A DNA stretch of 64,000 nt from Eledone cirrhosa. Its lineage: Eukaryota. Shown here in pieces: positions 11,647-39,718 of the stretch. Below the pieces are notes generated by a model, which searched no databases, was not told where the DNA came from, and worked only from the letters and a program-made list of their open reading frames with translations. The first letter of the stretch is position 1, and every line of letters starts with the position of its first letter. The position numbers and the translations under genes were made by a program. Location: positions 269,638,001-269,702,000 of the forward strand of contig OZ024741.1 in the NCBI GenBank assembly GCA_964016885.1, in the 5' to 3' direction.

Positions 11647-12132
11647 GGTTTGTAGGTTCACCACTGGATAGAACTGGTCATTCCGTATGGTCAATCTCGA
11701 TGTAATATTATGGAGAGCACTCAACGTAATGCAACTCACCCCTCTTCGTTTGTGTAGTTGGTGGTGCGAGTACGGAGTTAATTATTATAAAATAACAGGA
11801 GGCTGGACTGGTGTAAATCCTTGAAAGGTTTATTATACTATGATCATTTCAATGACCTGGTTCAGTATGAATCCGGTGACATCATCAGGTATTCAAAATA
11901 TAACAAAGGAATATAACGAGGGCGGCCAACTGAGGTAGAAGCTGCTAAATAGTCGGTCGTCCTCTTGTCTCTGATTTTCAGCCCCATGGATTATTTCTGT
12001 TACATTCCTTTGTTATATTTTGAATACCTGATGATGTCACCGGATTCATACTGATCCCGGTCAATGAAATGATCATAGTATAATAAACTTTTCAAGGATT
12101 TACACCAGTCCAGCCTCCTGTTATTTTATAAT
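11647..12132. mobile_element. (TA)n-embedded asymmetric palindromic element with two hammerheads (family P1, copy 1); putative Penelope-like pLTR derivative
   Basis: Inverted arms ~11784-11917 / 11999-12132 with a ~135-nt extension on the left arm only. HHR ATAC-CTGATGA-stemII-GAAA-TGATCA-TA-GTAT at 12024-12081 (+) and 11835-11892 (-). Second copy at 38146-38690. Confidence 0.75.
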
Positions 12133-12572
12133 ATATATATATATATATATATATATATATATATATATATATATATATATATATATATATATACACACAT
12201 ACATATATATATATATATATATATATATATATATATATATATATATATATATATATAACGTAATCCTGGTATGCTTATATACATTTTTTCTTCTAACTTT
12301 AATTTTATACTTAATTGTGTATGGTTGACGATATATTTAATCGATTTCCACGTGCTATTGAAATGCTGGGTAAATATTCTATAGCTGTTGATCGCGAATA
12401 GATGGCTGTCGTTTATTTATCTACTATTTCTTCATAGGTGCCTTTTAATCTTATAGCCTGGTTTAATTGGTTTTTTTGTGTGGTTGATTGTGCTGATTGG
12501 GAGAGGAAATAGTGTATATATCTTATCAAATGATTCTATGGACATATTTTATTATATATATATATATATATA

Positions 12573-13000
12573 TAATGTAGGAGGTAAGTTTTATTGTGGT
12601 ACAATAAAGCAATACAAATATCGGATAAGTAGCACTCTACAGTTTGTAGGACTGGAGTATAAATAATATAAGATCAAAAGATGGTTAAAAGAGTTCCAAG
12701 TATTTTATTATGCGCATTTCAAAAACAAATATCGTCTTGAGATGATATCTGCGTTTTCATCAGATAAAATAGGGATACATGATATGAAGGTTAAAAAACA
12801 CTTGTGAATAGTGAAGTTTTAAATCAACGGATATGTTGATTTAAAACTTCACTATTCACAAGTGTTTTTTAACCTTCATATCATGTATCCCTATTTTATC
12901 TGATGAAAACGCAGATATCATCTCAAGATGATATTTGTTTTTGAAATGCGCATAATAAAATACTTGGAACTCTTTTAACCATCTTTTGATCTTATATTAT
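12573..13000. mobile_element. (TA)n-embedded asymmetric palindromic element with two hammerheads (family P2)
   Basis: Near-perfect 166-bp arms 12663-12828 / 12835-13000 with a 6-nt spacer; ~90-nt extension on the left arm. Confidence 0.8.
12892..12962 (+). ncRNA. Type I hammerhead ribozyme (mirror copy on minus strand at 12701-12771)
   Basis: Stem I TATTTTAT/ATAAAATA (8 bp), CTGATGA 12900-12906, long stem II (AAACGCAGATATCATC-TCAA-GATGATATTTGTTTTT), GAAA 12943-12946, short stem III with palindromic GCGC loop, AUA cleavage triplet. Confidence 0.85.
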
Positions 13001-13077
13001 ATATATATATACATATATATATATATACATATATATATATATATATATATATATATATATATATATATATATATATA

Positions 13078-13752
13078 TAAACAATTAAGTTAAAAATGTA
13101 CATCTACATATGCATACTGAAATACTAGTGTGTATATGATACACACACGTATACATATGTAGGTGTACCAAGTCTTTCACTGGTCGCTTTACAGTGAGCG
13201 GCCCAGCTATTCTGTATGTAAACACACAGACAAACCGGTTTTTAGAGTCATACTGGTTTTGGGGGGAACACCTTCCCCCTATTCTGCAGAAAGCCAGACA
13301 AGGAATATTGAACTAGTTTCGTTGTTGTTACAACTCATCAGCAATATTTACCTATCTACCGGCCTTTCTGGAGAATTGTAAAAGCACATATCGTTATATG
13401 CTTTTTCTATGAAAATTAGTAGTGGGCAGACTAATTTGCATAGAGTGTGAGTACGCACCGGTTCAGCGGAGACGATAAAAACAAATAACGAAACGAAATT
13501 AAATTTCGTTTCGTTTGTAACTCACTTTTGTATGACTGACGCTTAAACAATTAAGTTAAAAATGTACATCTACATATGCATACTGAAATACTAGTGTGTA
13601 TATGAATACACACACGTATACATATGTAGGTGTACCAAGTCTTTCACTGGTCGCTTTACAGTGAGCGGCCCAGCTATTCTGTATGTAAACACACAGACAA
13701 ACCGGTTTTTAGAGTCATACTGGTTTTTGGGGGAACACCTTTGGGGGAACAG
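13078..13752 (-). mobile_element. Partial-tandem (about 1.4 units, 466-bp period) hammerhead-containing element in (TA)n; retrozyme-like (family R, copy 1)
   Basis: ~197-bp direct repeat 13078-13274 / 13544-13741; HHR at 13304-13348; upstream module homologous to 35700-35840. Confidence 0.75.
13304..13348 (-). ncRNA. Type I hammerhead ribozyme
   Basis: Minus strand AATATTG-CTGATGA-GTTGT(AACA)ACAAC-GAAA-C(TA)G-TT-CAATATT: 7-bp stem I, 5-bp stem II, palindromic AACTAGTT stem III region, GUU triplet. Confidence 0.85.
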
Positions 13753-13784
13753 CTATATATATATTTATTAAAATAACAGATTAA

Positions 13785-13835
13785 AGTTTAAGCAAAGAAT
13801 CGCTGCTTTCACCCTTAACGGGATCTTCTGAAACT
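13785..13835 (-). ncRNA. Degenerate hammerhead motif in a (TA)n-flanked island (13765-14040)
   Basis: AGTTT-CAGAAGA (one core mismatch)-TCCC(GTTAA)GGGT-GAAA-GCA..TGC-TT-AAACT. Confidence 0.55.
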
Positions 13836-14159
13836 AACAAAGTCAATCTGTAAACGCAGAACTGGATATTTCAAAAAACGTTGCAACCGGAGGAAGACAG
13901 GAAGACGATACTTTGGTTCGTGGTAACGTTCGCTGGCAAAGAACGGGAAAAAACGAATAATACGTCATTAATAGGAGCGGTGAAAAACAATTACGCGCAA
14001 AGACAAAACCACGTTTATGGTATAAAAGAGGTCGTAGACTATATATATATATATATATATATATATATATATATATATATATATATATATATATATATAT
14101 ATATATATATATATATATAAATATACATATATATATATGCGCGTGTGTGTGTGTGTGCG

Positions 14160-14327
14160 TATAGGAGAGAATACATGAAAAGAGCATGTTTTCATTACAC
14201 CCTGTAATGAAAACATGTTCTTTTCATGTATTCTCTCCTATATATTTTGAAGAGCCCGGAAAAATTTCCTTGAACTCATTATATTACAGGGACTAATGCG
14301 AGTCCTTTACTCCGTTGCTTCATTTGA
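14160..14327. mobile_element. Short asymmetric palindrome in microsatellite (family P3) carrying the 3' half of a hammerhead
   Basis: 40-bp arms 14160-14199 / 14203-14242 with CCC spacer; GAAA-A-CATG-T-TC half motif; ~85-nt right extension with the ACTC-stem-GAGTCCT hairpin. Confidence 0.6.
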
Positions 14328-37680: not shown

Positions 37681-37795
37681 TCTCTGATGATATGGGATCG
37701 ATTGTGCATTGGATATCGAATGCTCTACTAAATATATAATATTATAGATGTAGCGAGATCTAGGCAAATTGATGTCTATTGAAACGTACGTAAGA
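37681..37795 (+). ncRNA. Type I hammerhead motif with very long stem II, in a (TA)n-flanked island
   Basis: TCT-CTGATGA (37684-37690), ~90-nt stem II, GAAA (37781-37784)-C-GTAC-G-TA-AGA; palindromic loop III, GUA triplet; stem I only 3 bp. Confidence 0.65.
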
Positions 37796-37966
37796 GCCGA
37801 ATAAATCTCTTTTACTACATCTTTCTGTTCTTTTTAATTCTTTATATATATATATATATATATATATATATATATATATATATATATAAGTTATTCCGGG
37901 TTGAATCGGAGGTAACCACAGTAAGTAAAGTACTCAATACATTGCAGAGTATAAAAGTTTTAATAT

Positions 37967-38016
37967 AGCTTCCTGATGATTCTCATGTATGAAACAGTTC
38001 TTGTCCTGTAGAAGCT
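37967..38016 (+). ncRNA. Type I hammerhead motif in (TA)n-flanked island 37888-38079
   Basis: AGCTTC-CTGATGA-weak stem II-GAAA-CAG(TTCTTGTC)CTG-TA-GAAGCT: 6-bp stem I, stem III, GUA triplet. Confidence 0.7.
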
Positions 38017-38145
38017 CTAACTCGTCCCATGGACTGAGTGCTCTACCACTACGGATATTACCTTCCAGTGTTCTTCCAATATATATATATATATATATAT
38101 ATATATATATATATATATATATATATATATATATATATATATTCA

Positions 38146-38690
38146 TTTAGGTTTTTCGGTTCTCCACTGGATAGAACTGGTCATTCCATATAGTCAACCT
38201 TGATGTAATATTAGGGAGAGCACTCGACGTAATGCAACTCAGCCCGTTTTTGTTTGTGTTGTTGGTGGTGCGAGTACGGAGTTAATTATTATAAAATAAC
38301 AGGAGGCTGGACTGGTGTAATTCCTTAAAGGTTTATTATACTATAAACATTTCAATGACCGGGTTCAGTATGAATCAGGTGACATCTTCAGGTATTCCGA
38401 AATTTAACAAAGGATTATAATAGACACAATCCAATGGGCTGAAAAGCAGAGCGATGCCCAAGACGAGAAAGCGGCCCAAAAGTTAGCAGTTGCCAGTCCG
38501 GTTGGCCGCCCCCTGGTCTTGGGCATCGTTCTGCTTTTCAGCCCTTTGGACTGTGTCTATTATAATCCTTTGTTATATTTCGAATACCTGATGATTCACC
38601 GGATTCATACTGAACCCGGTCATTGAAATGTTTATAGTATAATAAACCTTTAAGGAATTACACCAGTCCAGCTTCCTATTATTTTATAAT
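38146..38690. mobile_element. Family P1 asymmetric palindromic hammerhead element, copy 2
   Basis: Homologous to 11647-12132 with the same outer ends; HHR at 38338-38395 (-) and 38584-38640 (+). Confidence 0.75.
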
Positions 38691-38706
38691 ATATATATAT
38701 ATATAT

Positions 38707-38907
38707 AGTGGTAGAACACTGGAAGGTAATATCCGTAGTGGTAGAGCACTCAGTCCATGGGACGAGTTAGGTAGAAGTGGTTACACAACAGTTTGTTCAC
38801 CATACCGAGAACAATTGTTTCACCTTAGTGGATCATCAGCTGAGGATCTGCTAAGGTGAAACAATTGTTCTCGGTATGGTGAACTAACTGTTGTGTAACC
38901 ACTTCTA
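38707..38907. mobile_element. Asymmetric palindrome (family P4) with two hammerhead cores fused back to back
   Basis: 68-bp arms 38772-38839 / 38840-38907 meeting at TCATCAG|CTGAGGA. Each arm reads CTGANGA-stemII-GAAA-CAATTG-TT. The left extension matches the tail of 38017-38075 in inverted orientation. Confidence 0.7.
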
Positions 38908-38930
38908 TATATATATATATATATATATAT

Positions 38931-39718
38931 AATAGTAATAAACGAAAGATATATACTTTATATCATATCTACTTAATTCATTATATATATTTCGAAGATG
39001 TAAAGTTTTATGTATAACATAAAGCAAAACATGTCCTCCTCAGATAAAATACATAGAAAATGTATAATTTTTTCATGATATGCTGGTTGTCAAACGAACT
39101 GGACAGATCAGTGACCACCAGGCATATGCATTTTGCTTTATGCTATACATAAAACTTCACATCTTCGAAATATATATAATGAAATAAATAGAGATGATAT
39201 AAAGTATACATCTTTCGTTTGGCAGTGTCGGTAGAGGATCGGACACCATGCTTTGTAGCATATGATCGGCCCTTTATGATCTGAGTTCAAATCCCGCCGA
39301 GGTTAACTTTGCCTTTCATCCTTATGGGGTCGATAGAATAAAGTACCAGTCACGCACTGGGATTGATTTAATCGACTTTCCCCTCCCCCCAAATTGCTGG
39401 CCTTGTGCCTATATAAGAAACCATTATGATAATAATTGGATTGGCAGTATCGGTAGAGGGTCGGACGCTATGCTTTGCAGCATAGTTGCGTCCCTTTACG
39501 GACTGAGTTCAAATCCCACCGAGGTTAACATGCCTTTCATCCTTACAGGGTCGATAAAATAAAGTACCAGTAATGCACTGGGTAATTGCTGGCCTTGTGC
39601 CAAAAGTAGAAACAATTATTATAATAATACTCAGCATAAATTTATACCGTTGAGTGATTCACATCTGTTATATATAAGAACGAGTTGATCACAAATCAAC
39701 TAACTCTTTTTCATTGAT
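38931..39718. mobile_element. Asymmetric palindromic hammerhead element (family P5) interrupted by two main SINE copies (39220-39423, 39437-39615)
   Basis: Arms 38941-39029 / 39131-39220; minus-strand HHR 38977-39051 (TATTTTAT-CTGAGGA-stemII-GAAA-TATATA-TA-ATGAA); tail with ACTC..TTGAGTG resumes at 39629. Confidence 0.65.

Follow-up and report, generated by a model that had tools for sequence, protein, structure and literature searches.

The window analyzed here is a stretch of 64,000 nucleotides (nt) from the genome of Eledone cirrhosa (contig OZ024741.1, positions 269,638,001 to 269,702,000), in which several copies of a small RNA hairpin with the consensus RCUC-(variable stem)-U(N)-GAGY are found. 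The hairpins belong to the non-coding 5' leader of Hydra-clade Penelope-like elements (PLEs), in which the order is hammerhead ribozyme, hairpin 1, hairpin 2 and ATG. Genomic copies of these elements have two sharp 3' ends, mostly located 4-9 nt before each hairpin, and in each family both 3' ends and the length of the tail can be predicted from the location of the hairpins. Judging from the sequences, each hairpin is probably a binding site for the protein of the element and thereby fixes one internal site at which reverse transcription begins. The motif is likely to represent a new cis-element, with a likely role, in a known class of elements; no description of it was found in Rfam or in the mostly open-access full-text literature that was searched.

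An earlier note on the window had described seven instances as a conserved 3' hairpin shared by unrelated hammerhead families. That account overlooked the duplication of the motif, the fact that half of the copies stop before the hairpin, and the membership of the elements in the Hydra clade.

The hairpin motif and its host elements

All seven strings were recovered at their positions in the window, the last of them ending at 39658. A strict descriptor (ACTC, at least 4 Watson-Crick pairs, a bulge of 1-2 nt and GAGT[GC][CA]T) identified six of the seven, as compared to a mean of 0.03 and a maximum of 1 in 100 block-wise dinucleotide shuffles of the window. Five repeat families of the 3.0-Gb genome, here called A, B, C, d and g, account for the seven instances. 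The instance at 39629-39658 is a true member of family g, though in a decayed copy. The instance at 14274-14306 is a chance match and not a family feature: among the 20 family d loci fetched, its ATTA/TAAT stem is private to the window copy, and ACTC was seen by eye in 2 of the 20.

A search of the genome for the word pair before (TA)n returned more than 10 unrelated sequences among the first 100 matches listed, nearly all with an inner stem and a bulge that starts with U (by eye). A control with swapped words (GAG for CTC) gave 173 raw matches, as compared to 211 for the motif, and the relaxed pattern alone is therefore unspecific. The association with a hammerhead upstream and (TA)n downstream was specific, with 52 cases for the motif and 1 for the swapped-word control. 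One hairpin has 2,309 exact genomic copies.

The motif was also found in marine-metagenome loci fetched by protein alignment (the best 80 of 177), among relatives with a protein identity of 35-45%, and is doubled there as well. In 25 non-redundant metagenome leaders we identified 32 matches on the sense strand and 2 on the antisense strand, with a shuffle mean of 0.31. When anchors were chosen blind to pairing, the sense strand showed a peak at a 2-nt bulge, with 45 of 81 first pairs of Watson-Crick type against 11-16 in other registers, and a U at position -2 in 54 of the 81 unselected anchors. The antisense strand displayed no register peak (17-26 of 93-97 everywhere).

Covariation was measured in 51 non-redundant hairpins, 32 from the metagenome and 19 of our own, which were chosen on the outer pair, the U bulge, the context and an inner part of at most 20 nt; the inner stem was not a criterion. 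Inner pairs 1 to 4 were paired in 48/51, 44/49, 34/44 and 24/36 hairpins, as compared to 34.8, 21.9, 18.3 and 16.6 in stratified shuffles, which bears out the claim that the inner stem changes and yet stays paired. The fifth pair was not significant (15/28 against 11.7). The basal helix was predicted at P>=0.5 in 35 of 45 hairpins, and in the MAFFT alignment A5 five pairs only were aligned correctly. The conserved core comprises about 10 nt, with free loops of 6 to more than 100 nt. A cis-acting, covarying RNA structure tied to PLE hammerheads and (TA)n junctions is supported.

Several details of the original description were revised. The basal pairs had been called invariant; the outer pair varies (G-C in 39, A-U in 10 and U-A in 2 of the 51 hairpins, a set picked for a Watson-Crick outer pair), is mostly G-C in the metagenome leaders, and in family C is A-U in hairpin 1 and G-C in hairpin 2. 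The word after GAGY is not fixed either (ACU 25, GCU 8, UCU 6, others 12). The 1-2 nt bulge is kept, with 2 nt most common overall and 1 nt in family A, and in addition it begins with U. The ATATT word said to follow was seen by eye in families A, B and C, but is absent from the metagenome sequences listed (uncounted). A coding explanation is out, as the hairpins precede the ATG, and hairpin lengths are spread over the three frames (24, 13 and 14 of 51). Rfam gave no match at the motif in the window and none at E<=1 in two full leaders, and the proposal that the hairpin is part of another ribozyme is left unsupported; likenesses to hairpin, twister and other ribozymes were likewise rejected for want of an Rfam match.

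Nor is the structure a 3' terminal element. It is part of the 5' leader, of which hairpin 1 is repeated in the 3' pseudo-long terminal repeat (pLTR). When its position was mapped relative to the open reading frame (ORF), the family A sequence followed the stop codon of a GIY-YIG endonuclease, and internal copies of family A continue via a non-coding stretch to an ATG about 200 nt after hairpin 1. The family A protein has the motifs RxRW, DKT and GxYRDDG, a CxCx5C linker, and CxxC and CxH. By eye, it matches the passages on the Hydra clade in PMC8557442, which give RWK, DKT, a CxCx5C linker and endonuclease CxxC and CxH as marks of the clade. Family A has RRLRWRA and SDKT, and family C has RRLRWIA; the tryptophan of the RWK motif is invariant in our protein alignment. 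The pLTRs further show a hammerhead core pattern and insertion at (TA)n, as in the Hydra clade (pattern-based). From these sequence motifs and a by-eye likeness to Hydra-1_Obim, the elements are assigned to the Hydra clade. An assignment to Nematis or Neptune was dropped, since their CX2-5CxxC linker (for Nematis, Suppl. Fig. S2 of PMC8557442, in the part available) differs from the CxCx5C of family A.

A reverse transcriptase-endonuclease ORF was linked to families A and C, the latter joined to a Hydra ORF in loci L199 and L249, and to relatives of a further family at 37929; no ORF link was found for family g. A model of an intact Hydra ORF of 710 amino acids (aa), such as the one at 2867-4996 of L321, had a pLDDT of 94, and a fold search placed it nearest telomerase reverse transcriptase (TERT first), with no PLE entry among the matches listed. 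A sequence search of PDB with the Hydra protein gave no match, Pfam gave nothing for the ORF pieces, and no relatives were found in viral contigs. Hydra elements are abundant, with 51,202 first-look candidates in the genome for one endonuclease piece.

According to passages in PMC8557442, the Hydra clade shares the hammerhead, the (TA)n target and the inverted pLTRs with a tail. By eye, the Hydra-1_Ajap consensus in that source starts 2 nt before hairpin 1 and has both hairpins before the ATG, and two other Hydra entries have hairpin 1 at their end. The passages on the clade do not mention the hairpins. In several Hydra elements (File S2 of the same source, in part, and loci L099 and L105), stem III of the hammerhead uses the hairpin-base words ACTC/GAGT, which is not the case in families A-C. 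Two young families, F714 (L321-L335) and F808 (L322-L329), have 0.9-1.9 kb between the intact Hydra ORF and the 3' leader copy and are longer than the under-3-kb size of the clade.

Where genomic copies end

Thirty family A loci were chosen by protein and not by their ends: by hand count, 15 end before hairpin 1, 13 end 37 nt after it (including the query locus) and 2 are broken earlier. For family B, 68 copies end before the hairpin, 32 read through and none ends inside (first 100 of 1,470, hand count). The corresponding numbers for family C are 70, 29 and 1 (first 100 of 5,399, hand count). The anchor for families B and C was placed about 10 nt upstream of the hairpin and is blind to copies with an end still further upstream. 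In family C, the long end falls at one and the same site in 100/100 of the rows listed, 5-7 nt before hairpin 2. Measured against 20 leader references, 194 of 226 ends fell at -14 to +1 of a hairpin start, as compared to 32 expected if uniform.

The spacing of the two hairpins ranges from 57 to 172 nt across leaders, and the long end tracks this spacing, the young family F808 being the clearest case. In F808, with a spacing of 172 nt, the ends are located 7 and 8 nt before the hairpins, and in F714 the long end is located 6 nt before the hairpin. Hairpin 2 of family B was sought after the rule had been set and was found 9 nt past the long end, at a spacing of 144 nt. In the metagenome, the same end rule was seen by eye at hairpin 1 in L092, L119, L123 and L149, and at hairpin 2 in L147, L157 and L161. 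A TA word with its end 5-7 nt in front of the hairpin is present in 17, 13 and 11 of 45, against a background of 9.3%, and AT-rich stretches elsewhere in the leaders are unused as ends. In contigs from three sequencing runs, of which X1 may be the window's own sample, read depth falls from 263,244 to 2,422 across the start of hairpin 2 and loose TA ends are present at both sites; runs X4 and X5 have the long end in one contig each.

A tail at one end only is a known feature of PLEs (passages in PMC8557442 and PMC3846280). Among inverted end pairs, 41 of 46 were of the short/long type, as compared to 23 expected, which quantifies the one-ended tail. The tail of 30-40 bp given in PMC8557442, in the part available, compares with the 57-172 nt of hairpin spacing here. 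Copies with a full ORF end at both sites, and none carries hairpin 2 at its 3' end. The idea that the hairpin forms a nuclease-resistant end is unsupported, because each end is located 5' of a hairpin, and an end on the 3' side of hairpin 1 is separated from it by a distance that varies with the spacer, from about 30 to more than 90 nt.

Proposed role of the hairpins

Of the three functions that the earlier note had guessed at, a recognition signal for the reverse transcriptase is the best. We propose that two protein molecules would dock, one per hairpin. The nicked (TA)n ends would then anneal to UA words just 5' of the hairpins and prime two cDNAs running away from them. The products would be a short end without a tail and a long end with a tail, the tail being hairpin 1 plus the spacer. 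A cDNA begun at one of these ends lacks the hairpin that marks it, and the simplest view is therefore that the signal works on the RNA template. As copies that end 3' of hairpin 2 are absent, a full-length copy would require a circular RNA, a multi-unit RNA or a template jump; we regard this requirement as evenly balanced.

Small RNAs that position a reverse transcriptase include the 3' stem-loops of long interspersed elements (LINEs), the R2 3' untranslated region, hepadnavirus epsilon and the telomerase template boundary element. The LINE and R2 signals are located 5' of the start and are copied, whereas the Hydra hairpin signal is doubled and located 3' of the start, and synthesis from there leaves it uncopied. 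For telomerase, the likeness extends to the predicted Hydra fold, which is nearest TERT.

The nearest biochemical parallel is the Poseidon PAc protein. According to the available parts of PMC11167929, PAc in vitro cuts both strands of AT-rich DNA, and reverse transcription begins at two internal sites that bound the tail, so that both strands are cut and extended as proposed here. The RNA is required to +172 and the second start is near +119, i.e. about 50 nt less far 3'; a signal 3' of each start therefore fits. Hammerhead cleavage is not required in vitro in that report, and RNA circles were proposed for PLEs earlier (PMC4209133, in part). The PAc system differs in that the starts are located in coding sequence with an AC-rich stem-loop, and the parts available define no binding motif.

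Several results weigh against this role of the hairpins. The RCUC/UNGAGY hairpin is absent from the PAc start region, as judged from the letters of Suppl. Fig. 1B (PMC11167929, in part), and a Neptune-type family with two ends about 50 nt apart has it in 0 of 30 copies. Two starts therefore need no such motif in other clades, and on this thin sample the motif is Hydra-specific and the two ends are general. Many loci in the 226-end count were retrieved with patterns close to the ends, BLAST alignments run too far into TA microhomology, and the covariation shuffles ignore the kinship of the sequences, although the proteins are only 33-48% alike. In the automatic scan, two matches were found in 12 of the 25 metagenome leaders, one in 8 and none in 5, several of the poorer leaders being truncated or showing more by eye. 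Family L229 has only 6 of 23 ends in the -14 to +1 window and a candidate hairpin 2 with a flipped central pair, and in L160 the 3' copy extends 11 nt past hairpin 1. In family A, the long end is sharp even though hairpin 2 is degenerate, with a mismatched outer pair, an A bulge and a loop of about 95 nt. Finally, most family d copies have C.A, and L103 has U.G, in place of the central U-A pair, which argues against a strictly required U.A-U triple.

The Neptune-type family (L251-L280) is a young PLE family with many open frames of 775 aa, and its two sharp ends are located about 149 and 198 nt downstream of the hammerhead core. It would be a good place to seek a clade-specific counterpart of the hairpin.

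The conserved core resembles the trans-activation response element (TAR) of human immunodeficiency virus (HIV). In the relevant passages of PMC6189040 and PMC1524922, TAR has A22-U40, the bulge U23, G26-C39, A27-U38, G28-C37 and C29-G36, which corresponds to R-U(N)-GAGC / GCUC-Y; HIV-2 TAR has a 2-nt UU bulge, and U63 of 7SK is a 1-nt bulge that, as in family A, can cap such a motif. The two layouts differ by a circular permutation, the hexaloop side of TAR being the open base of the Hydra hairpin. Homology to HIV TAR was rejected, as there is no apical hexaloop above the GAGC/GCUC stem, and common descent is not implied. The layout of an arginine sandwich is present, namely a paired base, then a bulged pyrimidine, then G-C and A-U pairs, and in 45 of the 51 hairpins the base 5' of the bulge is a purine in a Watson-Crick pair; family d, L103 and hairpin 2 of family A are exceptions. 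Candidate contacts would be two N-terminal arginines in the RxRW(K/R) motif, which is specific to the clade and in which they are strictly conserved: R35 is arginine in 16 of 17 sequences and R37 in 17 of 17, and never lysine. The TAR-matching core together with arginines that are never lysine suggests arginine-sandwich recognition. By analogy with TAR and 7SK, recognition could involve a U.A-U triple and an arginine in a widened groove, a serious but tentative possibility.

In families B and d, two internal copies each keep the hammerhead and both hairpins, with no match to a Hydra ORF after hairpin 2. In family B, hairpin 2 is followed by about 1.7 kb without a Hydra match and then by a second leader, giving a unit of about 1.9 kb between two leaders (one locus pair). 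In family d, hairpin 2 leads into a hammerhead core and leader-like sequence. That the hammerhead and hairpins are kept without an ORF is therefore as expected of signals for mobilisation and not translation. The available text on non-LTR retrozymes (bioRxiv 10.64898/2026.07.22.740005) describes ORF-less hammerhead units from PLE pLTRs, like B and d, and names no signal besides the hammerhead. Membership of the non-LTR retrozymes would require the absence of an ORF and at least two tandem units, each with a complete hammerhead; B and d are candidates.

As an alternative to docking, the RNA could be cut 5' of each hairpin by a nuclease of the host, by the protein of the element or by some unknown small ribozyme, with reverse transcription starting at the new 3' ends in a LINE-like manner. 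Such cutting would give the same two sharp ends without internal initiation, and the results here do not separate it from docking. It is nevertheless improbable given that PAc starts internally on uncut RNA in vitro (PMC11167929, in part), that Rfam gave no match, and that the conserved core is just about 10 nt with free loops.

A signal at the DNA level is very improbable. Here, the GIY-YIG endonuclease would recognise the motif in a cDNA or double-stranded intermediate and trim it, so that the ends are resolution sites; the tail has been put down to endonuclease-mediated resolution (PMC8557442, in part), the Drosophila Penelope endonuclease requires the tail in plasmid DNA (cited in the available part of PMC11167929), and the 3' word GAG-YR-CT(C) is nearly palindromic. 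However, short-ended copies lack any hairpin and long-ended copies lack hairpin 2, which places the signal outside such cDNA. Covariation at free loop length further indicates a folded single strand, and G-U exceeds A-C on the sense strand (22 against 9, a modest difference).

The hairpins could also control expression, acting on ORF translation or recruiting an elongation factor of the host in the manner of TAR, with the ends adjoining them only because priming is possible on the single-stranded, AU-rich stretches nearby. A core equal to the TAR bulge and the distance of 22-57 nt from the end of hairpin 2 to the ATG in metagenome leaders would suit such control, but it is highly improbable given the hairpins retained in ORF-less B and d, the unused AT-rich stretches and a tail length that tracks the spacing.

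Returning to docking on the RNA, a bolder and rather unlikely synthesis is that a doubled, TAR-like arginine-sandwich hairpin would load two reverse transcriptases on one circular RNA and prime both nicked (TA)n strands at once, with the spacing setting the tail, the hammerhead making the circle and the leader alone mobilising ORF-less RNAs. If true, an RNA structure would specify twin priming among the retroelements most closely related to telomerase. The PLE tail is a long-described feature that had no explanation at the sequence level, and the hairpin pair would explain why it is optional. The sole in vitro study placed the protein-binding region roughly, as compared to a 10-nt structural core here. 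Three questions become directly testable, namely the choice of start, twin priming by two enzymes and the circular template. The hairpins also provide a rule by which Hydra boundaries can be annotated and ORF-less hammerhead repeats matched with their partner elements.

Features of the window and its surroundings

The members and candidates in the window are as follows.

7454-7495 (+): likely hairpin of another family, about 50 nt before (TA)n, conserved in 3 relatives
11716-11778 (-): family B hairpin 1 with long loop insert; long-ended copy about 11648-11916
11847-11888 (-): family B hammerhead core (core pattern only), 68 nt upstream of hairpin 1
11968-12133 (+): family B inverted partner; core 12028-12069; short end just before hairpin 1
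12631-12658 (-): family C hairpin 1; the copy continues for about 56 nt and stops 5-7 nt before the hairpin 2 position of internal copies
12717-12763 (-): family C hammerhead core
12848-13005 (+): family C inverted partner; core 12900-12946; short end before hairpin 1
14254-14278 (+): true, decayed family d hairpin 1, just 5' of the 14274 match (by eye); the copy stops near 14326, 4-7 nt ahead of where internal copies have hairpin 2
14274-14306 (+): chance match of the earlier note, unconserved in family d
37719-37797 (-): candidate hairpin
37929-37950 (-): hairpin 1 of a further family, a relative of L229/L340
37973-37994 (+): hammerhead core in the inverted partner of the 37929 family
38020-38042 (+): family A hairpin 1; the copy (about 38017-38078) is truncated at the 5' end and consists of the tail only
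38219-38282 (-): family B hairpin 1, long-ended copy; hammerhead core 38350-38391
38502-38691 (+): family B inverted partner; core 38588-38628; short end
38745-38767 (-): family A hairpin 1 with 1-nt bulge; copy ends 37 nt further
38818-38839 (-): family A hammerhead core; hairpin 1 follows after 50 nt
38838-38907 (+): family A inverted partner; core 38840-38861; short end 4-8 nt before hairpin 1
38929-39074 (-): family g inverted partner; core 38990-39043; short end, the match stopping 13 nt before hairpin 1
39629-39658 (+): decayed family g hairpin 1; leader 39131-39220

The family g leader is separated from its hairpin 1 by about 390 nt of repeats resembling short interspersed elements (SINEs). 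These tRNA-like SINEs form tandem and inverted arrays at 10000-11370 and 39221-39614, the latter splitting the leader. A further candidate hairpin at 35603-35644 (+) was rejected, being unconserved in relatives.

Two other hammerhead-bearing families were observed. A sub-threshold Rfam match to hammerhead HH9 is located at 13288-13359 (-) (38.6 bits, E 3e-6), and no RCUC/UNGAGY hairpin was found in that family. The hammerhead core at 40277-40305 (+) belongs to another GIY-YIG family with a different zinc linker, also present at 850-1530 (-) of L089; no hairpin motif was seen by eye after the core.

A strand-skewed G/T trinucleotide-type repeat of about 17 kb occupies 17700-34500 (GC skew 0.93, AT skew -0.93) and is open in several frames. 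The 394-aa frame at 36101-37285 (-) has HCRCG / RH-type zinc and a nuclease-like C-terminus; it gave no Pfam match and is likely the end of a non-LTR or related element. A cluster of non-LTR retrotransposon pieces, which we take to be L2/Tx1-like and R4/RTE-like, spans 41600-61600 and includes an 839-aa frame at 57895-60414. Just 3' of the window, L088 contains at 2454-4667 (-) a single-exon rhodopsin-type G protein-coupled receptor of 738 aa (Pfam 7tm_1) with a very long third loop.

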